A stretch of DNA of 32,000 bases, from the NCBI GenBank assembly GCA_003056265.1, contig NBVN01000003.1:126923-158922 (forward strand), written 5' to 3'. A model generated the notes under the pieces. The model worked only from the letters and a program-made list of their open reading frames with translations. It ran no database searches and was not told the DNA's origin. Below are positions 1 to 24,801 of the stretch, piece by piece. Numbering within the stretch: position 1 is the stretch's first letter; every line of letters begins with the position of its first letter. Position numbers and translations under genes: made by a program. Origin of the DNA: Zestosphaera tikiterensis. Its GTDB lineage: Archaea > Thermoproteota > Thermoprotei_A > Sulfolobales > NBVN01.

Positions 1-588
1 GGAGGCACTGCGGACATAGGGTTTGCGACGCTTTCAGGAGCTGCTGAAAGAAACGATAATATCATACACATATGCGTGGATAACGAGGCTTACATGAACA
101 CAGGCATTCAAAGATCTTCTCAAACCCCCTTAGGGGCTTGGACCACGACTACTTGGAAAGGAAAGAAGGAAAGGAAGAAAGACCTACCGATGATTATGTT
201 AATGCATAAAATACCTTACGTAGCTACTGCGAGCGTCGCATACCCCCTAGACTTCATAGAAAAGCTTAGGAAGGCAGCATCCATTAAAGGGTTTAAGTAC
301 ATCCACCTACACGCTCCATGTCCAGTAGGTTGGAGGTTCGACCCAATGAAGACCGTAAGCGTTGCTAAGTTAGCTGTCGAGACAGGGATGTGGATATTAT
401 TCGAAGCCATCAACGGGAAGGTAGTGATAAGCCCTCCAAGCAAGCCATACGTAGATAAAACCAAAAGAAAACCCATAAAAGAATACCTATCAATTCAAGG
501 CAGGTTTAGAAACATAACTGAGGAAATATTAAAAGACCTCGAAAGACAAGTAGATGAAAACTGGGAAACACTCTTAAAGTTTACATAA
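1..588 (+). CDS. 2-oxoacid (pyruvate-type):ferredoxin oxidoreductase beta subunit, 5'-truncated by the window edge
   Basis: Frame 1 is open from nt 1 (GGTADIGFATLSGAAERNDNIIHICVDNEAYMNTGIQRSS...). This is the TPP-binding segment and C-terminal half typical of POR/OFOR beta subunits. The ORF-track start at nt 76 is an internal GTG. Confidence 0.8.
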   Translation, partial: GGTADIGFATLSGAAERNDNIIHICVDNEAYMNTGIQRSSQTPLGAWTTTTWKGKKERKKDLPMIMLMHKIPYVATASVAYPLDFIEKLRKAASIKGFKYIHLHAPCPVGWRFDPMKTVSVAKLAVETGMWILFEAINGKVVISPPSKPYVDKTKRKPIKEYLSIQGRFRNITEEILKDLERQVDENWETLLKFT

Positions 589-764
589 AACAGGTTTTCC
601 CCTAACCTCCTTAATCAACATTACCTCAATAAGCTTACCCAAAAAGCCAATCAAACAAGCCCTCAAACCTTTAACCTAGTGTAGTCAGAATAAACATGGA
701 TTTACTTAGAAAATCCTTATCTTTCAAAAGCTAGAGGTTAGGCTAATACCTGATGAGGTCTTAG

Positions 765-780
765 AGAGTAAATTTACACT
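765..780. repeat. 16-bp palindromic box, copy 1 (AGAGTAAATTTACACT, one arm mismatch)
   Basis: Read directly. It shares 15/16 positions with the perfect palindrome at 851-866, and both copies are followed by TAAA. Confidence 0.85.
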
Positions 781-850
781 TAAATGAAGAAGCAAATCCC
801 TTATCCTCCCTAAAAAATAGGAAAATGAGTAGATAAGAAAGCGTGTTTTG

Positions 851-866
851 AGTGTAAATTTACACT
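851..866. repeat. 16-bp perfect palindrome, copy 2 (AGTGTAAATTTACACT)
   Basis: Read directly. The sequence equals its own reverse complement and lies 86 bp centre-to-centre from copy 1. Confidence 0.9.
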
Positions 867-996
867 TAAAAAGGTTTTCTGCAGTTTCTTAGTGTTCTTT
901 AAGCTATTGTGTATGCTATGTGAAGAGGGGTTTGAAGAAGCTACGATAAACCCACCTACGGAAACTAAGGGAAAAGCCGTAGCGGAAGCGGTTGAT

Positions 997-1359
997 TTAC
1001 TGCCCTGTAAATGCTTTTTCAAATGCCTTCTCAATAGCTTTCCTATAGTTTGTTAGACGTGTGAAGAGCTTCGTAAGAACTTCCTCTACAGCTACTTCAT
1101 ATTCGATTCTTTCATCTTTTGATAATTTCTTAAAAGCTTTAAGTAGTGAGTTGATTGCTGTTTCGATATAGTCTTGATCCTCTATGTTTGTAAGTTCTAA
1201 GTCGTGGAGGGCTTCAACCCTAACGTATCCATCTAAAGGGCCTACGTAGCAGTACGTAACACCCTTCGTCTCCGGGTTGTAGTGCCTGTAGTAGACGTAC
1301 CTCCTGCCACTAATCACACGCACAATTCGAGACCCGCTCCTACCACATTTAGGGCACAC
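997..1359 (-). CDS. Small Zn-ribbon protein with an SSV-type-integrase-N-terminus-like beta-hairpin motif; function unknown
   Basis: 120-aa ORF. It has an N-terminal CPKCG, then GRRYVYYRHYNPETKGVTYCYVGPL. This parallels GKLYVYEQYRVGGKVITNYVAPL in the tRNA-overlapping ORF at 8014-8373 and the G+YYVY...YVGPL motif of fusellovirus-type integrase N-termini. The C-terminal half looks helical. A palindromic box lies 24 bp upstream of the ATG. Confidence 0.6.
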   Translation of the reverse strand: MCPKCGRSGSRIVRVISGRRYVYYRHYNPETKGVTYCYVGPLDGYVRVEALHDLELTNIEDQDYIETAINSLLKAFKKLSKDERIEYEVAVEEVLTKLFTRLTNYRKAIEKAFEKAFTGQ

Positions 1360-1382
1360 GCTGTCTATTCCTAACCACCCAC

Positions 1383-1398
1383 AGAGTAAATTTACACT
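1383..1398. promoter_or_regulatory. 16-bp palindromic box, copy 3 (AGAGTAAATTTACACT), over the predicted promoter/TSS of the 997-1359 ORF
   Basis: Identical to copy 1. It sits 24 bp upstream of the ATG at 1359, and a TATA-like TTTATTAG (bottom strand, 1406-1413) lies just beyond it. Confidence 0.6.
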
Positions 1399-1591
1399 GA
1401 AGAAACTAATAAACCTTACTTTATCTATTTACTGTAAAAGATGCGCCTACATTATTTTATTAATGTGAATCAATAGAGTTTAAGTCATGATTGTAAGTTG
1501 TTAAATTTTTCACCTTAGTATAAGTAGATATATTACATGAAGTCTAATATCTGAAAACCAATAGATTAGATATTAAAACCAAAAGTTTTTA

Positions 1592-1613
1592 ACCCCTTTA
1601 TTTCCTGTGGAAC
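1592..1613 (-). promoter_or_regulatory. Origin recognition box (ORB), outlying copy
   Basis: The bottom strand reads GTTCCACAGGAAATAAAGGGGT: the dyad TCCACAGGA, a spacer, then a GGGGT G-string. Confidence 0.7.
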
Positions 1614-2015
1614 CCACATACAACCCACGAAGCCAACTTTTACATCCAAGTTTTGCAGACATTCAAAATAGCGTTGATTAAGCAACCGCAAGAAAATTTC
1701 GGGAGTGAAGGTATTGAATAATTATGTATGGGAAATCCAAAGGTTAGGAACCAACATTGCTGACCGCACTCACCTCATAATCTATTATGAGGTTGTTAGA
1801 AATAAACTACTTCGATACTCCAAAAGAACTGAATACATAGGAAAGCATTAAATTACGTAACGTAACCTAGAGAACCCTTTGCTAAAACAAAGCTTAATCA
1901 AAAATAGATTTAACGTACTCAAGAGCTACTGCGAAATAAAAATCAACACATAATTTGAAATATAGTATAAAATTAAGCTAATTAAGGCTTTACTTTAAGC
2001 ATTATTTAATTAACG

Positions 2016-2042
2016 CCCCCACCCCTTCATTTCCACTGGAAC
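2016..2042 (-). promoter_or_regulatory. Origin recognition box (ORB), left of the AT-rich core
   Basis: The bottom strand reads GTTCCAGTGGAAATGAAGGGGTGGGGG, the classical dyad TCCAGTGGA plus G-string. Confidence 0.85.
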
Positions 2043-2327
2043 GGAAAACCCTATTAAACACGTTAATTTCAACATATCACCTCAATGTTTTTAGTGAAGG
2101 AATTCAAGAATTTCTTAAAGAATTTCTTAAACCTTAAAATAAAGAATATATTACGTCTTATTTTTATTTTTTAAAATAATGTTAAAGTAGAAAATAAAAA
2201 GATGTTATTTATTATAATTCTTACTTAGCATATTAAATAATTATTAACTATGCTTATAAAATAGAATATCTTATATATAGAGATAATTATACAAACTAAA
2301 TCAATGCAATTTAAAATATGTTAATAA

Positions 2328-2356
2328 TCTCCAGTGGAAACAGAGGGGTGGGGGTG
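2328..2356 (+). promoter_or_regulatory. Origin recognition box (ORB), right of the AT-rich core, inverted relative to 2016-2042
   Basis: The top strand reads TCTCCAGTGGAAACAGAGGGGTGGGGGTG. It matches the 2016-2042 copy at 22 of 27 aligned positions. The dyads face the AT-rich core and the G-strings point outward. Confidence 0.85.
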
Positions 2357-2565
2357 TTTCTGGATTTATTTTTAGGTGTTTATTGGTGTTTTATGAATTT
2401 TATTTATATGTTATTTTGTAGTGATGTATTTTATCTGCTTTACATCTGGTTTTGTTTGAATGTTTTTGATTTTGTATAAAGTGTTTTAATTGAGTTGGTT
2501 TTACTTAATGGTGGGTTTTGTGGTGGGGTTTCATCGGTTTGAGTTCCTCTGGAGTTTTCCTAAGG

Positions 2566-2751
2566 TTATGGTTTTCCTATTATGTATGGTGTGAGGTATG
2601 TTAATATGATTACTGAGGTTGCGAAAGCTATTGAGAGCCATATTATCGTGTATGGTTTTATACCTACTTTAGATTCTACTTCTTCGAAAAATCTAACTAG
2701 GCCAGCACCGCTTGCCGGCCCTACCTCCCTTCTTTTTCTTCTGCTTGACAA
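2566..2751 (-). CDS. Preprotein translocase Sec61 beta subunit (archaeal Sec-beta)
   Basis: 61 aa. A basic N-terminus is followed by GPASGAGLVRFFEE...GIKP and a single C-terminal TM helix (IIWLSIAFATSVIILTYL), the characteristic Sec61beta layout. Confidence 0.75.
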   Translation of the reverse strand: MSSRRKRREVGPASGAGLVRFFEEVESKVGIKPYTIIWLSIAFATSVIILTYLTPYIIGKP

Positions 2752-4373: not shown

Positions 4374-5732
4374 TCAACGAATAAACTCGGTAACCTCCAT
4401 AGGTAAATCAAGGCATGCCCTCCACCTACCGTAACGTACTTCAGGCATTATCAAATGCTTAACCGCTCTATCCACCGGTACGTAAACACCTAAAGATACT
4501 TTCCTTTCCAAAGCGATTTCATCCCTAGCTAAGTTAGAAGCTTTAAAACCGCATTTAGGGCATCTCCACCCCTTACCTCGACCTAAGGACTTCATCCTAT
4601 GACCGCATTTAGGGCATTTAGGGTTTAAATACTTAACCCCAACGACATCTAACACGCTTACCTTATCCACATGAAGTACGGGCCCGAAACCCGTCCAGAA
4701 CTTAACACCGCCGCAAACCTCCACGCGATCTCCATCCATTAAAGCTTGAAGTACTTTATTAAGGCCTGTTTCTTTAAACGCTACGGCGTTAAGGGTTGAA
4801 ACCCCGTCAACGATTTTAATCATTACGTCACCACCTCGTAGGGTTGAGGGCCTACCTAACACAACACCTTCAAAACAACCTGTTTGGTAGGGTCTCACAT
4901 CATCTAAAGATCTCCTCACGTGGTGGGCGTTAGTTCCTTGATTGGTTTTAAACACTGCCCAACCTTCTATCTCCTCGCAGATCTTCAACGATTTAAAAGC
5001 TTTAAGAAGTGCTTTAGGGTCCTCACCTCTAATACCTAGAAGAACTGGATTACTTCCTGAGGGGGTTATGAGCGGCTTATCCTTGCTGTAGTCGTAGTTA
5101 AGGAAAGTTACGTGTTTAAACTCCTCATCCATAGCTTTAATCGATTCTACATCAACACACCTCTCTTTAAGGTAGTTGCTAGGATGTCTATAAACGATTA
5201 ACTCATAAGTACAGTCAGGTAGGTTAACAGCTCCAACGGCGGCTAAAGCCCCTACCAAACCCCTCTTTAAACCAAGGGGTGTTTCCACACGCCCGTTTAA
5301 TTCGTTAATTACGTTAACTAAGTAGTCCATATGTACGTAATCGGTTAACGCCTTAAGGTAGAGCTTCCTTAAAGGTTCCGATACTTCACCATATACGAAA
5401 GCTAAGCCTGGATCCACACCATAGCTTGTTAAGTCTTCATTAACGCGTGTGCTTACATACTTTAAAACTTCATTAACGACGTCCTTCTTCAAACTATCTA
5501 GAAGTTCCGTCGGTACCTTAAGCCTTAAGGCTAAGGCGGCATTCCCTCTAGTTTTGAAAGGTATTGTAGGGTTTAAACGTATTAGGTTTGGAAAATCTAA
5601 GGGTGTTACTTTAGAGTGTTTGTTAAGTATGTTCTTAAGTATTCTGTAAGTTACGTGTGTTGTACAACCTGAAAACTGCGTATCTACGTCGTCTAAGCCT
5701 ATATGGACTGTCGTGTAGTCGTTAACACTCAC
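4374..5732 (-). CDS. tiaS: tRNA(Ile2) 2-agmatinylcytidine synthetase TiaS
   Basis: 452 aa. The N-terminus reads HIGLDDVDTQFSGCTTH ... LIRLNPTIPFKTRGN. The C-terminus has a Zn ribbon, CPKCGHRMKSLGRGKGWRCPKCG. It overlaps the upstream RAM-domain gene by 4 nt. Confidence 0.85.
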   Translation of the reverse strand: MSVNDYTTVHIGLDDVDTQFSGCTTHVTYRILKNILNKHSKVTPLDFPNLIRLNPTIPFKTRGNAALALRLKVPTELLDSLKKDVVNEVLKYVSTRVNEDLTSYGVDPGLAFVYGEVSEPLRKLYLKALTDYVHMDYLVNVINELNGRVETPLGLKRGLVGALAAVGAVNLPDCTYELIVYRHPSNYLKERCVDVESIKAMDEEFKHVTFLNYDYSKDKPLITPSGSNPVLLGIRGEDPKALLKAFKSLKICEEIEGWAVFKTNQGTNAHHVRRSLDDVRPYQTGCFEGVVLGRPSTLRGGDVMIKIVDGVSTLNAVAFKETGLNKVLQALMDGDRVEVCGGVKFWTGFGPVLHVDKVSVLDVVGVKYLNPKCPKCGHRMKSLGRGKGWRCPKCGFKASNLARDEIALERKVSLGVYVPVDRAVKHLIMPEVRYGRWRACLDLPMEVTEFIR

Positions 5733-8002: not shown

Positions 8003-8079
8003 GGGCCGGTAGCTCAGCCTGGAAGAGCGCTCGGCTTGCAACCGAGAGGTCCCGGGTTCAAGTCCCGGCCGGTCCACCA
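8003..8079 (+). tRNA. tRNA-Ala (anticodon UGC), CCA encoded
   Basis: Cloverleaf folded by hand. The acceptor GGGCCGG/CCGGTCC has the G3:U70 alanine identity pair. The anticodon arm is CTCGG-CTTGCAA-CCGAG and the T arm is CCGGG-TTCAAGT-CCCGG, followed by ACCA. Confidence 0.9.
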
Positions 8080-8373
8080 ACCCCTCATTAAGTTAACTAC
8101 GTCGCCCGCGATTTCCTTCGCTAGCCTACGTAATTTCTTCGTGGTTAATCTGTAGTTAACTGACCCGTCATCGTTAACTACGCCCAGCTGGGTTAGCTGG
8201 TAGTGACGCACTAGAACCTCAAGAGGGGCTACGTAGTTTGTGATGACTTTACCGCCGACCCTATACTGCTCGTAGACATAGAGCTTACCCTTAACCTTCT
8301 TAACGACGAAGCCCAAGCCAACACCCAAATATGTAGTTAACTCTGAAGGCATATTAACCCAAACCCCACCCAA
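8014..8373 (-). pseudogene. SSV-type (fusellovirus-like) integrase N-terminal fragment, Int(N), reading into the tRNA-Ala gene
   Basis: The ORF's last ~22 codons (...WWTGRDLNPGPLGCKPSALPG) are the reverse complement of tRNA-Ala nt 8014-8079. Upstream it encodes KGKLYVYEQYRVGGKVITNYVAPLEVLV, the integrase N-terminal motif. No catalytic tyrosine-recombinase part follows. The likely real start is the ATG at 8352. Confidence 0.7.
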
Positions 8374-11449: not shown

Positions 11450-12667
11450 TTATAAGTAAGGGTAGTGACCGTCTGGGTGGGAAGGGTAGAATTTCTCGTT
11501 CATTTCCTTTATCAGTTCTAGCAGTTCGTGTGAATTGTGAGCTAAAGGTATGCTATCGAGTAAATCTCGCCATTTCTTACTTTGTTCGCATAACCCATTC
11601 CATTGCGAATACCCTTTGTCTAGTCCTCTAAGGGCATCAGATAAGCTAGGGTCTAGTCTTCTGAGGACGTTAGATAAGCTAGGTATGTCAACACCAACTT
11701 TCAATCCGTATTCCTGATATTTATTGGCGTAACCGCTTAACCAAGCTTTTTGGAACTTGTTAGGTTCAAACTCCTCAAGCGGAACTTTTCTTCCGTTACC
11801 TGTCTTTGGATTGTTGCGGAAATCTCTGTATGCTTCAAAGTGAGGCACGACATTATTTATGAACATATCGTATAGCGAACTAAAGTCGTTTGACCAAGTT
11901 CTTGGGTGGAAAAGCGGATATTCCTTCGGTAGGGAGTAAGGATCTATGGGTACAACCGCTACGTTATGAAAGTCTATTGATGGGCCTAACCCTGCTACGA
12001 CATATAACGCTACATTGTTAAAGTTCTCATCCCATAGGGGTTTAACAACCTTTAATAGGGTTTTAAAGCCTGTTAGTTGCTTTTCTAAAATCCTTGAGCT
12101 ATCCCATTCACGTTTCCCAGTAGGATCCTTGAATGATAATTCAAAGATAATCCTTCCCCGCCCGCTATCACGTAGAGATTTCTTAAGCTCTTCTCTAATA
12201 AGGCTAATTGCCTTCTCGTTATTATTTAAGGTCGAGAAGAAGATACCATTTGTTTGAATAACAGCTCTTGTGCTGGGATATCTGTTCAGCCCAATTTCTT
12301 GTATTACCTGTAAAGCCTTACCGCAGGCTTTTAACGTAAGTAAAGTTCTATCCAAAGAAAGGCACGGCTCACCTCCCTGTATTCTTACCCAGTTAATTTT
12401 CCTTTGAACGTTAAGACTGTAGAGATTATCCAGAGCCTTCAATACGTGATCTAAACTATATGTGTAACCCTCTCTATTCGGAAACCACGCATATCTCCAA
12501 GCATAACATAAGGGACATCTAAGGTTGCATCCAGCATACCTTAAAACAAGGGCGTATCCTTCACCACCTCTTTTACCTTCCTTATTCAACTCAAAAGGTC
12601 TAATTTTCGAATCTATTGATGACTCAGTTGGTGATCTAGCAAAAAATTCGTATTGCTTCATAACCAT
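11450..12667 (-). CDS. Radical SAM enzyme (QueE/activase-like core) with an uncharacterised ~200-aa C-terminal extension
   Basis: 405 aa. The CX3CX2C motif lies at C47/C51/C54 (LVLRYAGCNLRCPLCYAW), with the SAM-binding IQGGEPC downstream. There is no second Cys cluster. Confidence 0.75.
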   Translation of the reverse strand: MVMKQYEFFARSPTESSIDSKIRPFELNKEGKRGGEGYALVLRYAGCNLRCPLCYAWRYAWFPNREGYTYSLDHVLKALDNLYSLNVQRKINWVRIQGGEPCLSLDRTLLTLKACGKALQVIQEIGLNRYPSTRAVIQTNGIFFSTLNNNEKAISLIREELKKSLRDSGRGRIIFELSFKDPTGKREWDSSRILEKQLTGFKTLLKVVKPLWDENFNNVALYVVAGLGPSIDFHNVAVVPIDPYSLPKEYPLFHPRTWSNDFSSLYDMFINNVVPHFEAYRDFRNNPKTGNGRKVPLEEFEPNKFQKAWLSGYANKYQEYGLKVGVDIPSLSNVLRRLDPSLSDALRGLDKGYSQWNGLCEQSKKWRDLLDSIPLAHNSHELLELIKEMNEKFYPSHPDGHYPYL

Positions 12668-13859: not shown

Positions 13860-14978
13860 CTACGAATAACTTCTTAAGTATTCTTGAATTATTGGTGAGA
13901 GACGTTTTTTAGCTTTTGATATTACTTCAAGTCCTAAAGTTAGTGTTTCTGCGTTGTCTAGAAGTATTTCATCGTTTATTATTAGTGTTTCCACGCGTAG
14001 CTCTCCTTCAACGATAGCTTTAGTTAAGCTGTTTATTTCTGTAGGTAAGGGCCAGCCGGGCGGTTCTGAGGTATTAAACATAAGTATGTTTGTTATGTAG
14101 TTGTTTTCTATAGGGCCTAAAGACTTAAATCCTAGGATGCTGGGGTTTCTGGCCGTCGCCGCGTAAATTACGTCTATTGGGTGTTTACCGGTTTTATACA
14201 CGACCTCTCTAGAGACGTCTATCATGCTGTATGAAGGTCTAACGCCTATGCCTAACCCTTCGTTAGGTTTCCACATGCTTAACTGCGATCCCCACCTGAT
14301 TACGTTATTTCCAGACCCGTTCGTAGGGTTTATATAAACTACGTTGGGTTCTGAAGGGTCTACGTAAGGCGCGTTTAACACGAAGAGCTTCAAACCATAT
14401 GCTTTAGCAGTCTCTAAAACTTCATCAGTGGGTTTTCCGCAAGTTGCTAAAGCTACCTTCACCTCATCAACTTTCTCATGCCATCTGTTAATCAACATTT
14501 TAAACTCGTTCTCAGGCTCGAACTCCTCCAAACCGCAGTTTATAGGCGGGGCTAGAACAACGTTAAAGCCTGAGTCGTGTGCCGCCCTAGCTACCTCATC
14601 TAAGTATATATCTATAAATAACGCGTTCGTAATCCCTTTAGAGATCATTTCAATCATAGTCATAGCTGCTAAGAAATACATATCAGTCCTGCTTAACTTC
14701 CTAAGGTAGTCTAGATTCTTACTTAAATCCGGGTCTTTAACGACGTACCTAAGCGGGTAAAGAGAAGCTATGGTGTACGCGGAGCTAAACGCGGGTAGGA
14801 CCAACCTATCCTTACCGCTAATCAATAGTTCGGGGTAGCTGAATTCCTCCGGAGGCTCTCCCTCACCCACTCCGTTAACCCTTCCCTCACTTGAGAATAT
14901 ATACCCCTCCTTAATTAGGAGTTTCTCCTCGGTAGAGAACGTGAGTATTGAGGCGTTATTAATTAGGATTTTAACCAA
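13860..14978 (-). CDS. Amidohydrolase-superfamily protein (MTA/SAH- or nucleoside-deaminase-like) lacking the canonical HxH metal motif
   Basis: 372 aa. The N-terminal beta-sandwich and barrel entry (ILINNASILTF...GKDRLVLPAFSSAYTIAS) align to the xPGFxxxHxH segment, but Y-T-I replaces H-x-H. The stop of the upstream phosphorylase gene lies 6 nt from its start. Confidence 0.6.
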   Translation of the reverse strand: MVKILINNASILTFSTEEKLLIKEGYIFSSEGRVNGVGEGEPPEEFSYPELLISGKDRLVLPAFSSAYTIASLYPLRYVVKDPDLSKNLDYLRKLSRTDMYFLAAMTMIEMISKGITNALFIDIYLDEVARAAHDSGFNVVLAPPINCGLEEFEPENEFKMLINRWHEKVDEVKVALATCGKPTDEVLETAKAYGLKLFVLNAPYVDPSEPNVVYINPTNGSGNNVIRWGSQLSMWKPNEGLGIGVRPSYSMIDVSREVVYKTGKHPIDVIYAATARNPSILGFKSLGPIENNYITNILMFNTSEPPGWPLPTEINSLTKAIVEGELRVETLIINDEILLDNAETLTLGLEVISKAKKRLSPIIQEYLRSYS

Positions 14979-18012: not shown

Positions 18013-21000
18013 TTAATATTCGCATGTGGGGCATTCCCCTGACTCGCCTTCCTTTAACACGTATCGGGTGATTCTATACCTACTTAAATCCTTTCTAACT
18101 TGTTTTGGCTCCACCTCATGTTCTGCTTCTTCAGATTTACGGATTACTCGTTCCTTTACTTGAGGTTCTTCAAGTTCTTTACCTTCACGTGACATCTTCT
18201 TAGTTAGCTTCGCACCGAAGTAAATCACTTGCTGTGTCTTGCTTTTATCTCTATATACGGTTATTCCTTTACAGCCAACCACCCATGCCGTCATATAAGC
18301 TTTCCTAACGTCTTCTACGGTTGCTTCAGCCCTCATGTTAATTGTCTTACTTACTCCAGCGTCCACCCATTGCTGCCATGCCGCTTGATGAAGTATATGC
18401 CATATAGGTTCAATGTCATGAGCTGTTGGGAAAACCTCCCTAAGCTTCTTGGGTATGAAGGGATTCCCCCTTACGGAACCTGACTCCGCAACAACGCCAA
18501 CTACCTCCGGGTTGTCGAGGCCGTAGAGTCTGAGGGCTTCTAGGAAGAGTGGATTAACTTCGATGAAAGTCCCTACAGTTACTACTCTAGTGAACGCTAA
18601 AGCAAATATGGGTTCTATAGATGATGAAGTGCCGCCGATTATCGAGACCGTCCCTGTAGGCGCTATAGAAAGTACGGCGGCGTTTCTTAAACCTTTAGCT
18701 CTAACCTCACTTTCAAGTTCTCTCCAATTAACGGAGGGCCTTTCAAACACAAGCTTCTTCACCTCACTTGAGATGTTGCCGGAGACGCCGCTAGCTTTGA
18801 AGATCTCTTCTAAAGGAAGTGCGTCACTCCAAAACATCTTGTAAAGCTTCGAGTTCCAAGCAGGGAACGGACCTTTCTCAATAGCTAACTTAAGTGAAGC
18901 TCTATAGGCGTTGTAAGCAATCCACTCAGCAAGGTGGTAAGCTAGGTAAACAGCATCTACGCTGTCGTAGGGGATTCCTAACTTCACAAGCATGTGGGCC
19001 CAACCCATAACACCTAAACCAACTTTCCTCGTTCTTCTAACACGCTCCTCAATTTGAGGGAGTAAAAACCTAGCAACGTCAATAACATTATCTAAAAATC
19101 TAACAGCTACCTCAACATCCTTTCCTAAACCCACCCAATCTATTCGGCCGTCGCTAGTCACGTACTTCTCAAGGTTTATACTTCCTAAATTGCAGGCCTC
19201 CCACTCAAGAAGAGGTTCCTCACCACAGTTGTGATGTATTAATCCGGCCGCAATGTAGGCGTGAACCTCCGGTACGGTGAAGTCATAAAAGTCTACTACT
19301 CCAGCGTCTTCAACTCTCTCCACCGACACCCAGACCGGGTCGCTCTCAGCTTTACTTAACTTCAGCTCGGTGGTCTTTTCCAATGATTCAAAACCTACGA
19401 GTTCAGTGAATATGTGACGGCTGTAGTTACTTATCGTTAACTCATAGTATTCGGAAGCCTCATATACCTTCACCTCATCATTTGCTGTGGCATAGCTGAA
19501 TTTCCTGTCGTGTGGTTTGCTATATATCTCGCTGAATATCCCTATCGTCGTTAGCAATATTTGAACGTCCTTAAGCAGGTCTGAGCTGGCGTTAGTCAGC
19601 CTTATCGCATCGTCAAAACCTGTAGCTCCGTTGGCTGTGAATAAACCACGTAGGAAAGATTTAAGGGATTCTAGATCTAGCTTCCAAGCAATCTCTGGAA
19701 GTCTTCTCCTATGCTGGTATGGAGGGATTTCACCAATAAGTTCAACCACTTTCTTATATGCACTTGTTCCACTACCGAACTTAAGTGTTAATTCAGCTTT
19801 ATCTAACACCGCATTACCGTCTGAGTTCCCGCCTAACTTAGCTATCGCCTGCTTAACCCTCTCGAAAGCAGCTCCATCCCCTGATTTAAAGTGCCACGCG
19901 ACATAATCCTTGCTTAATGCGCCGTTTCCCACCAACCAACCAAGGGCGAACGCAACGTCCGAATCGAGTTTGATAGTAGAGGTCAGGGCCCTCCCTACAT
20001 ACTCTGGATGCATTCTCGCTAACGCTATTGCGTCGCCAGGCCTTAACTCACGTGCTTCTTTCCAACCTTCAGGGGTTAGGAATCTATGCTCATACGTGAC
20101 AGTTACCTCATACCCTTCCTTCGTAACTACCTTAAGTGCTGGCTTCCTACCTACGTACCAAACCCACGCTTTCTGCGGAGCTACGATTTTCAACTTTAAC
20201 TCTTTGTTTTCGGCGATTCCGCGTACAGCAGATTCACCTACCGGCGCTACAAGCGTTGTTTCGTATGCTATCGGTTCACCACCCTCGCCGAGAACTTTTT
20301 CATCAGCAACTACGGTTTTGACTTCAACTCCATGTTTCTTAGCCTCCTCCCAAACCTCCCGGGCGGTCCTCCACCCCTTAGGTGTTAATACACGGGTCTC
20401 TCCACTAACGCATGGGTTGGTCGCGTTTATCTTGCCTAAGTACCACGTCGGATGTCTTCGGTTTATAGTGTCTATGAATAGAAGCCCTGGGTCTCCCGAC
20501 TCCCAAGCGTTCTTAACTATCTCCTCAAATATTGCCTTAGGGTCTTCCCACGCTACTATCGCCCCCTCCGCTTCAGCTATCGCTAAAGCTTCGTCCCACG
20601 TTATTATGAGGCTATTCTCTAAAGGTATGGAGCCTCCGTTCATTTCCAACTCATCTATTATTACCTCCTGAACCCATTCCTCATCCATGTAATGTCTTGC
20701 CCAGACGACAGCGTATTTCAGCGAGTTATGTGTTTTATCTAAGGAGGTCTTTCTTGGGTTGATTAAAGGTACGGGTTTTCCTTCATTTAACGCTTTCATG
20801 AAGTAGTCGTACATACCTACGGATATGTTGAAGTTTTGAAGGACGGCGTCTTTCCCCTCGCCAGATTTAGCTTTAATGAACTTCTTAATGTCTGGATGCC
20901 AAACGTGAAGTACGCCCATGTTAGCTCCTCTACGCCTTCCGCCCTGCTTAACGACCTCCGTATTCACGTCGAACAGCTTCATGAATGAAAGAGGTCCTGA

Positions 21001-21777
21001 AGCAACTCCAGCAGTTGAAGCGACTACATCACCTTCAGGCCTTAATTCAGAGAAGTTGAAGCCGCAACCACCGCCCTGCTGGAATATAATTGCTTGAGCT
21101 CTAACGGCGTCGTAAATCCCATCGTTTTCAGGCGTTACCATAGCGTCTCTAACGGGTAAGACAAAACACGCTGAGAGAATTCCCAACTTAGTTCCTGCGT
21201 TCATTAACGTAGGTGAGTTGGGAATGAACCTTAACTCCTTCATTAAACGAAGGAACTCGTTAAACCAATATTCCCTAGATTCCGGCTTCTCAGCGGAAGC
21301 GACGAACCTAGCCACCCTTTCAAAAAGGGCTTTAGGCGTTTCTAAAAACCTTCCGCTGTTTGGATCCTTCCTTAAATACCTACTCATTAAAACCCTTAAA
21401 GCATAGTAAGTAAGTCTTAAATCGTCTGGGTCGAAAGAACTCCACTTACCCTTGCCGAAGACGTCGTTGTAGATCCTCGCAAGTAAGTAGTACCTACCAG
21501 CAACTTCATACCTAGGGTCTTCAACAACCCTGGTAATGAAAGCCTTCTCAACAAAGTCGGATATCTTACTTGAAGGAACTTTATCAGGCTCGTTAAAAAC
21601 GGAGTTTAGAACATCATCCATAACTGACGTAAGTGACGCGTCGTTTAAACCAGCCGCGTTTAACGCCGCATGAACACTCTTGACTAACTTACTCAACTCA
21701 AAAGGTTCTTCACGTCCATTCCTCTTAACTACGGTTAGGGATTTCATAGTCAAACTCAATCGACCTATACCATTCAC
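18013..21777 (-). CDS. nrdJ: Ribonucleoside reductase, adenosylcobalamin-dependent class II, with N-terminal ATP-cone and one intein
   Basis: 1254 aa. The ATP-cone is [11 protein letters not shown].... The catalytic site NATNP-C...GEEPL is interrupted between P455 and the catalytic Cys. The C-terminus carries CPTC. The likely real start is M11 (nt 21747). Confidence 0.9.
19228..20412 (-). mobile_element. Intein (395 aa) with a LAGLIDADG-type endonuclease domain, inserted at the RNR active-site NPCGE motif
   Basis: The intein starts at CVSGETRVL (Cys codon 20412-20410) and has block B TYEH. The LAGLIDADG-like motifs are [10 protein letters not shown] and [11 protein letters not shown]. It ends ...AAGLIHHN (Asn codon 19230-19228), followed by the +1 Cys of CGEEPL. 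Both junctions are in frame with the ORF, at codons 456 and 850. Confidence 0.9.
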
Positions 21778-21959: not shown

Positions 21960-23117
21960 TTAAATAGCTTTGAACTTAGCATCCCAGGATTCGAAAACTT
22001 TAATCAACTCTTTATTAACGCTAGGTTTCCTCTCCTTTAAAACTTCCATAAAGTCCTCCATAGTTATAGGTCTAGGTACGCCGTCGTGAGAGCCTCTAGC
22101 GAAAAGCTCTCTAACCGTTCTTAAATGAGCCGTCATAACTATATCTTTTATATCGCTTGCTGTATACCCGTCTAAAGCGTCAGCCAACCTGCTGAAGTCA
22201 ACGTCGGGACTTAAACTTAACTTCTTCGTGTAAAGTTTAATTAACTGCAGCCTAGCTTCTTTGTTAGGTAGGGGTATGTAGATCCTTTTTTGAAATCTTC
22301 TTATGAACGCATCGTCGAGTTTCCATGGCTTGTTCGTAGCCGCTATGACATATACGAAGTACGTTTTGTCCTTGTCTTGAAGGCCGTCCATCTCCTTCAA
22401 AAACTGATTCCTAACTCTAGTTTCCCCACCTACTTCAGCGTTAAACGAGCTTAGTAGAGAATCTACTTCATCAATGAATATTATCACGGGTTTTTTCGAT
22501 GCTGCGGCTAGGTCACGCGCCTTACTGAATATTTTAGCGACCCTCTTCTCAGCTTCACCTAACCATTTAGACATTATGGAAGCGGCGTCCACATGTATGA
22601 AGTAGCCATCAACTTCATTAGCTACTGCGGCCGCTACGTAGGTCTTGCCACAGCCCGGAGGCCCGAAAAGTAAAATCCCTCTAGGCCACCCTAAAGGAAA
22701 AAGATCGGGTCTTTTGGTGGGGTAGATTATAGATTCGAAGAAAGCCTGCTTAACATGTTCTAAATCAGCAACGTCTTCAAAAGTAACCTTCGGTTTTTCC
22801 TTAAGTATAAACTCCTCAAGATCTTCATCGTCTGATTCCGAGCTCCTACTTCCGGTCGCTGGGAGGAGTGAAGTCCTCAAGCTTTCTAAATCTTTAATTC
22901 TCTTATGGTATTGCTTTATCCAATCCTTGTAGATTGTGTTGAGGGGGTTGTCGGGATATAACTGTATTATCTTGTTAAGTACTTCTATAGCGTTCCTATA
23001 GTTTTTTATAGCCTCCCCGTAATTACCTTCCCTATCGTTAAGAACTGCTTGAATCGCGTAATGCCTTGCTGCGTTTTCAAGATAGGGTAGTGAGTTGCTG
23101 CTCATCCGTAAAAACAC
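21960..23117 (-). CDS. cdvC: CdvC, Vps4-like AAA+ ATPase with N-terminal MIT domain
   Basis: 385 aa. It has MIT-like helices ([22 protein letters not shown]), Walker A GPPGCGKT and Walker B IIFIDEVD, and lies immediately downstream of cdvB. Confidence 0.9.
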
Positions 23118-23137
23118 CTCATATAGGTTTTCCCTTC

Positions 23138-24007
23138 CTAAAAGATTACCTTATTCTGTTCTTTCAACCTATTTAACGACTCGTATATCTCTTCCTTACC
23201 TACGCCTAACTTAGACGCTACGTCATTTACGTCTAGGAAGCCGTTATGCGTTAATATATACTCCAGCACAGCCTTATCTAACATGCTGGGCTCCATCCTC
23301 CTACTAGGTGTTTTAGGCTTCGACGGCTGTGGTTGAGCTACAGCCTCCTTAACCCTCTCCTCCAAGTTACTCTTGACTTTAACAGGGACAAGGATATTCA
23401 ACGGTATCTCGGGGAGTTGATTCTTCACAGTTTCCGCAGCTGCTTTCTCAATCTCCTCCAACAACTTCTTAGCTTCAGGTGTGTATTCCAAAGCCTGCTC
23501 GGGCTTCAGCTGGACGTAGTCTGTTGTGGAGGCTAGCATCTTCCTCGATTCGTTAATCATAGTTTCTATGTTGTACGCGAGGCTCGGTATAACGTCTTTA
23601 ACGTAGTCTTTAGCTAGGGAGAGTAGGTTAGAAACCTCAATTAAAGATGGTGAGATATTACTCACATCTTCTAAGGTCTCAAGCCTTAGTTTAACTTGCT
23701 CAAGCACCTTCTCAACTATGACTAACTTCGTCACCATCTCACGTACTTGATGAGCTTCATTAGCGTATATTAAAGCTCTATCGCCTTCCTTACTGACCGT
23801 AGCCGCTATAGTTGCTTTCAGTAGGTTCTCGAACCTAGACTTAAGCCTAGCTATAGCTTCAGTAACCTCCTGCTTAGCTGTGTCTATATGAACTATAAGT
23901 AGGGATATAACTCTTTTCTTCTCTAGCTTAGATTTACTCCTACTAAACGGACCTATTAAGTTCCTGAACCATTTAAGCACACCCCCCTCATTCTCTACCG
24001 ATGTCAC
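23138..24007 (-). CDS. cdvB: CdvB, ESCRT-III-like protein with C-terminal winged helix
   Basis: 289 aa. A Snf7-like helical core is followed by a C-terminal wH-like segment ([40 protein letters not shown]). It sits between cdvA and cdvC. Confidence 0.85.
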
Positions 24008-24039
24008 TGCTCACCCCTCCCAGCTCCTCCCTTCAGCGT

Positions 24040-24801
24040 TTAAGTGTCGACGACCTGAACTTGAATTGGGGATTCTGCTTTAGGCATAGACTGCGTGGCA
24101 GGGGTTGAGGGGGTTGTGAGTGTTTGTTGCGGTGCTTCCGCCGCCTGCCTTATCTCACCGGCTTCAGTCTCTAACTTACTTATAAGTTCTAAGTGTTTCT
24201 CAACATCTCTTTTTTCGTCTAAAGACTTAGTTCTGTTGTTCCTAAGGAAGTCGGCCGCTATCTTATATGAAGCCTCGCTGAATTCGTTGCTCATGTAGAG
24301 CACTTGAAGGTTTGTTAAGTCCTTCTCAAGCCTTATTATGAGGTCTTCTAACTCCCCAGCTCTCTTCCTTAACAACTCCTTAACCTTCTTAACTTCCTCC
24401 TTTAAATTCCTAAACTCGACCTCCAGCTTTCTCTTCAACTCTTCGTAGGCGTGGACGGGTACGGTGCCTTTCCTGTAGAGATCTTCAGTAGCTCTTAACC
24501 TCTTCTTAACGCGGTCTAATTTATTTTCAATATCTAGCGCCTTCACTTTCCACTCGGGAACAACTACTAAACCGTCTGGAGTGAGTTTAATTCTTGAAGC
24601 AGGCACGCCTTCATACATAGCGTCATTAATGCTTAACTCTATAGACTCTACTTCACCGGAGACGTTGCTATAAACCATTACTAACTTACCTAAAATCCTA
24701 CCATACTCATCTTTAATCATTTGACCAACGAACTTATCCAGTTGATCCAAAGTTATTATCACTTTCTCAACACCTCGTAAAAGATACTGATGTATTAACA
24801 A
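24040..24801 (-). CDS. cdvA: CdvA (PRC-barrel, coiled coil, C-terminal tail)
   Basis: 253 aa with FVGQMIKDEYGRILGKLVMVYSNVSGEVESIELS (PRC barrel), then a long coiled coil. An alternative start is the GTG at 24762, preceded by GGTG, with TTTTTTAAGG (bottom strand) about 45 nt upstream. Confidence 0.85.
   Translation of the reverse strand: MLIHQYLLRGVEKVIITLDQLDKFVGQMIKDEYGRILGKLVMVYSNVSGEVESIELSINDAMYEGVPASRIKLTPDGLVVVPEWKVKALDIENKLDRVKKRLRATEDLYRKGTVPVHAYEELKRKLEVEFRNLKEEVKKVKELLRKRAGELEDLIIRLEKDLTNLQVLYMSNEFSEASYKIAADFLRNNRTKSLDEKRDVEKHLELISKLETEAGEIRQAAEAPQQTLTTPSTPATQSMPKAESPIQVQVVDT

Follow-up and report, generated by a model that had tools for sequence, protein, structure and literature searches.

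A probable Orc1-1-type chromosomal replication origin with no initiator gene in cis in an uncultured Zestosphaera-like member of the Thermoprotei

The 1.2-kb non-coding interval at positions 1360-2565 of a 32,000-nucleotide stretch of archaeal DNA (hereafter, the window) is very probably (probability of about 0.85) the main Orc1-1-type (oriC1) chromosomal origin of an uncultured Zestosphaera-like member of the Thermoprotei, whose activity we infer from sequence features. A first, sequence-only reading of this DNA had proposed an ORB-type chromosomal origin here, a proposal now supported by the box consensus, the geometry of the boxes, a conserved motif called ucm, and synteny. Here, we describe the elements of this locus, their geometry, their conservation and synteny in relatives, and the lack of an initiator gene in cis. 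The analysis places the main origin of this lineage and provides it with four known cis elements: an outer ORB, an inverted ORB pair, a duplex-unwinding element (DUE), and ucm.

Recognition Boxes and AT-Rich Core

The interval extends from the start of ORF120 (997-1359, minus strand), which encodes a 120-aa Zn-ribbon protein, to the stop of sec61-beta (2566-2751, minus strand), which had been correctly named as the neighbor on that side. The absence of ORFs that had been reported for it holds for those of at least 60 aa, but the ORF list contains three smaller ones of 41, 48, and 53 aa (all below 60 aa), and the corresponding sequence differs by indels from that of the nearest relative, locus L004.

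Three origin recognition boxes are found within the interval. The left inner ORB (2016-2042, minus strand; GTTCCAGTGGAAATGAAGGGGTGGGGG) has its dyad toward the core and its G-string outward; the right inner ORB (2328-2356, plus strand; TCTCCAGTGGAAACAGAGGGGTGGGGGTG) also turns its dyad toward the core; and the outer, ORB1-like box (1592-1613, minus strand; GTTCCACAGGAAATAAAGGGGT) has the same orientation as the left inner ORB, with TTAAAA following the G-string instead of further G. When the window was re-read, the coordinates and sequences originally given for the boxes proved exact to the base, including those of the third box on the bottom strand, and the two inner boxes were identical at 22 of 27 positions, as had been claimed. 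A repeat finder recovered the latter as an inverted repeat with 29-nt arms (2012-2040 and 2330-2358, 86% complementary), which confirms that they are inverted with their dyads facing the core.

The boxes possess the features of the ORB consensus, i.e., the dyad TCCAGTGGA and a GGGGT G-string, and they agree with the published consensus for Archaea, CTTCCAGTGGAAACGAAAGGGGT (PMC4153887, Table 2), which upholds their assignment to the ORB type. In Methanomassiliicoccales, the ORB is given as GTTCCAGTGGAAATGG-AGGGGTA, with an optional GGGGGT extension (PMC4153887, Table 2). In the 32-kb window, a 20-nt ORB pattern, TCCASWGGAAANRRAGGGGT, was matched three times, always within 1360-2565, against an expectation of 0.00; none of 100 shuffled versions of the window contained any match. 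The exact dyad is present at four sites in the window, all within 1592-2553. The fourth of these, a bare dyad at 2544-2553 (minus strand; TCCAGAGGAA), is a doubtful candidate for a mini-ORB and may be a chance occurrence, since it is not conserved in L004.

The inner boxes enclose a 285-bp AT-rich core (2043-2327), the presumed DUE. Its GC content of 18.2%, compared with 41.5% for the whole window, is the lowest of the 32 kb, and 285-bp segments with less than 22% GC start only at positions 2019-2169, all of them overlapping the core; its extreme AT-richness, already pointed out in the first reading, is therefore confirmed. The tandem 12-mer described in the core (AAGAATTTCTTA x2; 2106-2129, plus strand) is likewise present. 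It is absent in L004, and on this comparison it is lineage-specific, with no function indicated.

Distribution of the Box Across Archaea

An extended form of the box, TCCASWGGAANNNNAGGGGTGGGG, was scanned over one genome per species in 185,579 species, and was found in at least 120 blocks from nearly all archaeal phyla. The matches listed come from Thermoplasmata, several orders of methanogens, Nano-, Woese-, Odin-, Bathy-, and Thaumarchaeota, haloarchaea, Archaeoglobus, Thermococci, and Desulfurococcales. Among these listed matches, Orc1 is encoded in 76 of 120 blocks, at a median distance of 98.5 bp from the box, and the inward orientation is seen in every one of the 23 loci that contain exactly two strict boxes. 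This is the geometry of the window, which the sequence-only reading had called canonical for inverted ORBs around an AT-rich element. Among 2.9 million viral contigs, just two occurrences of the extended ORB were found. The consensus match, the spread across phyla, the proximity to Orc1, the inward geometry, and the rarity in viruses together identify the box as a canonical Orc1-type ORB.

As a side observation, four contigs assigned to bacterial MAGs (L023, L033, L073, and L104; Lachnospiraceae, Eggerthellaceae, Paludibacter, and Thermodesulfobacteriota) carry archaeal ORBs, accompanied in the first three by an orc1 gene. These are very probably archaeal contigs that were mis-binned in public MAGs.

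The ucm Motif

The core contains one more element, which had not been noted in the first reading: an exact 11/11 match to ucm (ATTATACAAAC) at 2286-2296 on the plus strand, 33 nt inside the right ORB. This motif is conserved inside the cores of four loci (the window, L004, L006, and L051), and it was found nowhere else in 131 loci. It was considered as a possible new and unexplained element; this was rejected, as it equals the published ucm (PMC12141716).

The 11-bp ucm, whose sequence we took from the oligonucleotides of Dhanaraju et al. (2025; PMC12141716), is essential in Sulfolobus islandicus, where its mutation abolishes firing of oriC1. It is bound by the nucleoid protein UBP, which contacts MCM, and it is conserved across Sulfolobales and in both origins of Aeropyrum pernix (PMC12141716). 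By analogy, the site at 2286-2296 is presumed to be a UBP binding site. In a sequence search against solved structures, no UBP gene was detectable among the small unassigned ORFs of the window. Sulfolobus oriC1 itself contains three ORBs, two of which are inverted around the DUE (PMC12141716); with an exact ucm beside its ORBs and core, the locus studied here therefore has the full parts list of oriC1.

A ucm match is not significant alone, as one with at most one mismatch is found in 65 of 100 shuffles of the window; its evidential weight comes from position and conservation. The match is exact in L004 and L051, 10/11 in L029, and 9/11 in L035, and in these four loci it lies 35-45 nt from the ORB on the tiaS side, while L006 has two inverted 10/11 copies, each about 50 nt in from an ORB. 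In the remaining ~1 Mb of retrieved loci, the ucm 10-mer occurs only three times. Within the window, a G+T-rich flank of about 200 bp runs from the right ORB to the sec61-beta stop (2357-2565, plus strand), with a top-strand GC skew of up to +0.6 and an AT skew down to -0.5; it includes a 22-nt block that is conserved in L004 and spans a ucm-like site (TTTATACAAAA; 2470-2480, minus strand).

The boxes could also be imagined as regulatory sites for an Orc1/Cdc6 paralogue that exerts Orc1-2-like transcriptional control, with no origin at this locus. Orc1 paralogues are described as able to act as transcription regulators (PMC9738581), and ORBs isolated from orc1 do exist in other archaea (14 of 40 non-Thermoprotei blocks among the matches listed). 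However, an inverted pair, an extremely AT-rich core, and ucm make up a complete origin architecture and not a promoter arrangement, and the flanking genes terminate at the region, none of them beginning from it. We therefore regard a purely regulatory role as highly improbable.

Conservation and Synteny in Relatives

Relatives were gathered through homologues of TiaS (4374-5732 in the window) and the contigs that carry them. These homologues place the organism among uncultured Thermoprotei, with TiaS identities of approximately 53% to the closest Zestosphaera and Desulfurococcales MAGs and 77% to L004. A look-up of MazG recovered only short metagenome fragments, which are identical or almost identical to the window and thus uninformative as to conservation. 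The complete cdvA-cdvB-cdvC (Vps4) cell-division cluster of the window (21960-24801) is consistent with a host from the Thermoprotei. The window also encodes a MazG-like protein, an alcohol dehydrogenase, an AsnC-type ligand-binding protein, Tsr3, RNase P RNA, enolase, a CCA-adding enzyme, and the large subunit of ribonucleotide reductase (18013-21777), which is split by an intein that contains a LAGLIDADG homing-endonuclease domain. Inside a radical-SAM ORF (11450-12667), a 33-nt sequence is repeated in tandem (11618-11683; two copies, 85% identical).

Relatives whose TiaS is 36-77% identical retain the ORB-core-ucm-ORB unit in the same chromosomal location, next to tiaS, mazG, sec61-beta, and the operon for 2-oxoacid:ferredoxin oxidoreductase (POR), while the surrounding non-coding DNA has diverged. 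The position beside tiaS/asnC/tsr3/mazG/sec61-beta/POR is retained in L004, L006, L029, L035, L051, L013, L037, and L117. The whole unit was found in L004 (77% TiaS identity), L006 (53%), L029, L035, and L051, with diverged spacers in all of them; L013 has ORB-core-ORB with a diverged spacer and no detectable ucm. The pair faces inward, as in the window, in L004, L006, L013, L029, and L035.

In L004, the gene order is tiaS, adh, mazG, sec61-beta, gap, and POR-beta, and the 860-bp gap holds an inverted ORB pair around an AT-rich spacer of diverged sequence. A 33-nt block at the right ORB is identical to that of the window and a 45-nt block at the left ORB is 87% identical, as compared with ~50-65% for the flanking DNA; the outer box is of the same type (AGGGGTT(T)AAAA), a similar box being present in L051, and the core has diverged except for ucm. 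In L006, a Zestosphaera MAG, the inverted pair surrounds a 170-bp core with 18.5% GC (56% for the locus), and the unit sits between the POR operon and mazG/sec61-beta. Four more loci from Thermoprotei/Desulfurococcales MAGs (L029, L035, L051, and L013) have an ORB pair beside tiaS or sec61-beta, and in two further loci, 2.6 kb separate an ORB from POR-beta. The distance to tiaS varies: the gene directly adjoins the unit in L029 and L035, and 2-3.5 kb lie between the two in the window and in L006. The near-perfect retention of the inner ORBs and ucm around and within a diverged spacer indicates purifying selection on every functional element.

Location of the Initiator Gene

Among the window ORFs of 90 aa or more, none was found to contain a Cdc6/ORC Pfam domain. 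In addition, an Orc1 profile built from 77 Orc1 proteins of other ORB loci found no match in the window, L004, or L006-L008, and the syntenic loci of relatives contain no orc1 gene. The observation that no orc1/cdc6 gene lies near the origin is thus borne out for the window by both the Pfam and the profile searches. Domain searches likewise revealed no whiP-like gene among the neighbors, although a very divergent homologue is possible.

This arrangement has a precedent. Neither of the two cdc6 genes of A. pernix adjoins an origin (reviewed in PMC5333045), and the origins of this species, verified by marker-frequency analysis, have been equated with Sulfolobus oriC1 and oriC3, its oriC1 corresponding to the Orc1-1-dependent Sulfolobus oriC1 (PMC10769869). 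A search with the A. pernix ORC1 sequence from structure 2V1U showed Orc1-1 proteins to be highly conserved in both Desulfurococcales and Acidilobales. Within 10 kb on either side of orc1-1, the loci from A. pernix (L132), Stetteria (L133), and a Desulfurococcales MAG (L134) have no ORB, bare dyad, or strong AT dip. In all three, an Endo_dU (PF01949) gene directly follows orc1-1 (L132, 10001-11837; L133, 10001-11780; L134, 10001-11780); judging from these loci, the orc1-1/Endo_dU neighborhood is a conserved, origin-free home of the initiator gene. A tRNA gene was also seen just upstream of orc1-1 in Stetteria and the Desulfurococcales MAG.

Among the matches listed in the box scan, and after edge correction, Orc1 is encoded within 2 kb of a box in 26 of 40 non-Thermoprotei blocks vs. 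0 of 4 Thermoprotei blocks. Adjacency to orc1 is thus typical of oriC1 but does not define it, as A. pernix lacks the linkage. The earlier remark that a non-adjacent initiator gene is unusual is accurate for archaea overall; it does not extend to this group, given the A. pernix precedent (PMC5333045) and the absence of linkage from all four Thermoprotei blocks. In this Desulfurococcales-like order, a replicator separate from its initiator gene appears to be the norm; this is not a new finding, since A. pernix, with origins verified by experiment, is a published case.

The genes on both sides are directed toward the origin and would run head-on to replication forks, so that gene orientation provides no support for an origin. 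The cumulative GC skew over the window has no informative inflection, because only 1.3 kb of the window lie to the left of the origin. It could be proposed that the locus is a dormant or relic origin, the elements of which are kept, and perhaps bound by Orc1-1, while replication starts elsewhere, e.g., at a WhiP-type origin. Dormant origins are documented in haloarchaea (PMC4595724), and the unlinked initiator gene and a gene orientation that lends no support to firing would both fit such a state. The selection that has maintained the inner ORBs and ucm across lineages with diverged spacers, on the other hand, argues against dormancy, as does the fact that the homologous type of origin fires in A. 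pernix, which makes this explanation improbable compared with an active oriC1.

Linkage to tiaS

The gene tiaS accompanies origins well beyond the Thermoprotei. In Methanomassiliicoccales and other Thermoplasmata, it lies directly beside an ORB-orc1-ORB unit in 32 loci among the matches listed (L042, 3790-7140; L011, L020, L024, L071, and 27 other Thermoplasmata loci), and in a Salinarchaeum MAG (L010) it is 3 kb from an ORB. No mention of synteny between tiaS and oriC was found in the literature searched. The occurrence of tiaS beside an orc1-ORB unit in Thermoplasmata points to an ancestral position. It is conceivable, though on balance rather unlikely, that oriC1 kept an ancient address by tiaS and that orc1-1 was translocated near the base of the Desulfurococcales, where it is now associated with the Endo_dU gene; our reserve stems from the fact that most other phyla in the scan have no tiaS linkage. 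If the linkage were ancestral, oriC1 would have stood beside tiaS since before these phyla diverged, and the order as a whole would represent a natural uncoupling of a replicator from its initiator gene.

Mobile-Element Cassette and Probable Integration Remnant

A mobile-element cassette of approximately 0.9 kb (589-1480, minus strand; borders approximate), which is not part of the origin, is located between the POR operon, whose POR-beta gene ends in the window (1-588), and the outer ORB. It contains ORF120 and three copies of the palindrome GTAAATTTACAC (768-779, 854-865, and 1386-1397), for which 0.33 occurrences are expected in the window. In L004, which does not have the cassette, the outer ORB follows the POR-beta stop by ~85 nt; from this comparison, the cassette was apparently inserted in the present lineage only.

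Only seven homologues of ORF120 were found in 5.8 billion proteins. Homologues with 75-79% identity are encoded on mobile-element contigs, among ORFans and beside genes for DUF5906 primase-helicases, with a Cas4-like gene on one contig. One of the seven, named as from Zestosphaera tikiterensis, is 75% identical, far closer than TiaS. The palindrome lies 18-29 nt upstream of the start codon of each homologue, and likewise in the window. ORF120, which has no Pfam or NCBIfam match, probably encodes a DNA-binding protein that regulates its own expression and stems from an archaeal plasmid or virus. The label "Zn-ribbon/integrase-N-like" that had been attached to it is therefore right as to the Zn-ribbon and not as to the integrase: its similarity to an integrase-N-like ORF at 8014-8373 is weak (28%, E 0.002), and its homologues reside in mobile elements with their own palindrome. 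For these reasons, we rejected ORF120 as an N-terminal fragment of an SSV-type integrase marking a captured element. It was also rejected as a component of the origin, being absent from L004.

The ORF at 8014-8373 (119 aa, minus strand) has a weak match to the N-terminal family of the SSV1 integrase (PF07935, E 3.5e-4), and its 3' end is overlapped by a tRNA-Ala(TGC) gene (8003-8079, plus strand). This tRNA/integrase overlap (8003-8373) is an SSV-type integration signature, which probably persists as a solitary remnant. Neither a second att repeat nor an integrase C-fragment was found in the window to the right of tRNA-Ala. An intact provirus at tRNA-Ala was rejected, as no tRNA repeat exists rightward and the ORF at 13860-14978 is amidohydrolase-like.

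These features raise the question of whether the origin belonged to an integrated extrachromosomal element, a plasmid or virus of which the Zn-ribbon ORF would be the remnant. ORF120 does come from a mobile-element gene family, the integrase-N-like remnant at tRNA-Ala is 5.5 kb from the origin, and a capture model has been put forward for oriC2 and oriC3 of Sulfolobus. Nevertheless, L004 has the origin without ORF120, the origin lies amid housekeeping genes in at least six lineages, and the contigs with ORF120 homologues carry no ORBs. The near absence of the extended ORB from viral contigs and the presence of tiaS beside the orc1-ORB unit in Thermoplasmata also speak against capture, for which we see very little likelihood. 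A resident chromosomal oriC1, next to which a cassette was inserted, is the reading that we retain.

Proposed Mechanism and Implications

By analogy with work on Sulfolobus and Aeropyrum, from which we infer protein binding, helicase loading, and firing at this origin, Orc1-1 monomers, produced from a gene at another chromosomal site, would bind each ORB with a fixed polarity, the winged helix being placed on the TCCAGTGGA dyad and the AAA+ initiator-specific motif on the G-string. Because the two inner boxes are inverted, the two initiators would face each other across the AT-rich core. In its ATP form, Orc1-1 would then load the MCM helicase onto the core, where UBP bound to ucm may help in the activation and departure of MCM. 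The outer box could accommodate one more Orc1-1.

A placed origin could be used to orient the genome, to estimate growth rates from metagenomic coverage, and to design shuttle vectors. More generally, the case of A. pernix, in which oriC1 is served by an initiator encoded in trans, can be extended to several uncultured lineages. Prediction tools that rely on an initiator gene next to the origin would miss such origins, which a combined search for ORB and ucm would find.

Comparison with Known Origins

The locus most resembles oriC1 of Sulfolobus/Saccharolobus and of A. pernix. Like the former, it has three ORBs of the same consensus, of which two form an inverted pair on the two sides of an AT-rich DUE, and ATTATACAAAC within the DUE. 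Three differences are apparent. In Sulfolobus oriC1, orc1-1 is immediately adjacent, whereas it is absent from the window and the syntenic loci; the two inner ORBs of the window are 285 bp apart, compared with 130 bp for the ORB3-DUE-ORB2 region of Sulfolobus; and ucm, which is midway in Sulfolobus oriC1, is off-center in the window, 33 nt from one ORB. A. pernix oriC1 is also of the ORB type, belongs to the same broad order, has no adjacent cdc6 (PMC5333045), and is reported to contain ucm (PMC12141716). Its activity has been confirmed by marker-frequency analysis (PMC10769869), and its orc1-1 locus is without ORBs.

The orc1/cdc6.1-linked origin of Methanomassiliicoccales/Thermoplasmata has the same ORB, including the GGGGG extension (PMC4153887), and in these archaea, as in the window, tiaS neighbors the ORB unit, directly adjoining it in the 32 loci mentioned above. 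In contrast to the window, their inverted ORBs lie on either side of the orc1 gene, at a separation of 1.5-1.9 kb, and ucm was not found there. Finally, the WhiP-dependent origins (Sulfolobus oriC3 and A. pernix oriC2) are chromosomal, are found in the same lineages, and share ucm (PMC12141716), but they have an adjacent whiP gene and are specified by WhiP rather than Orc1-1, whereas the window combines canonical ORBs with the lack of any whiP-like gene.
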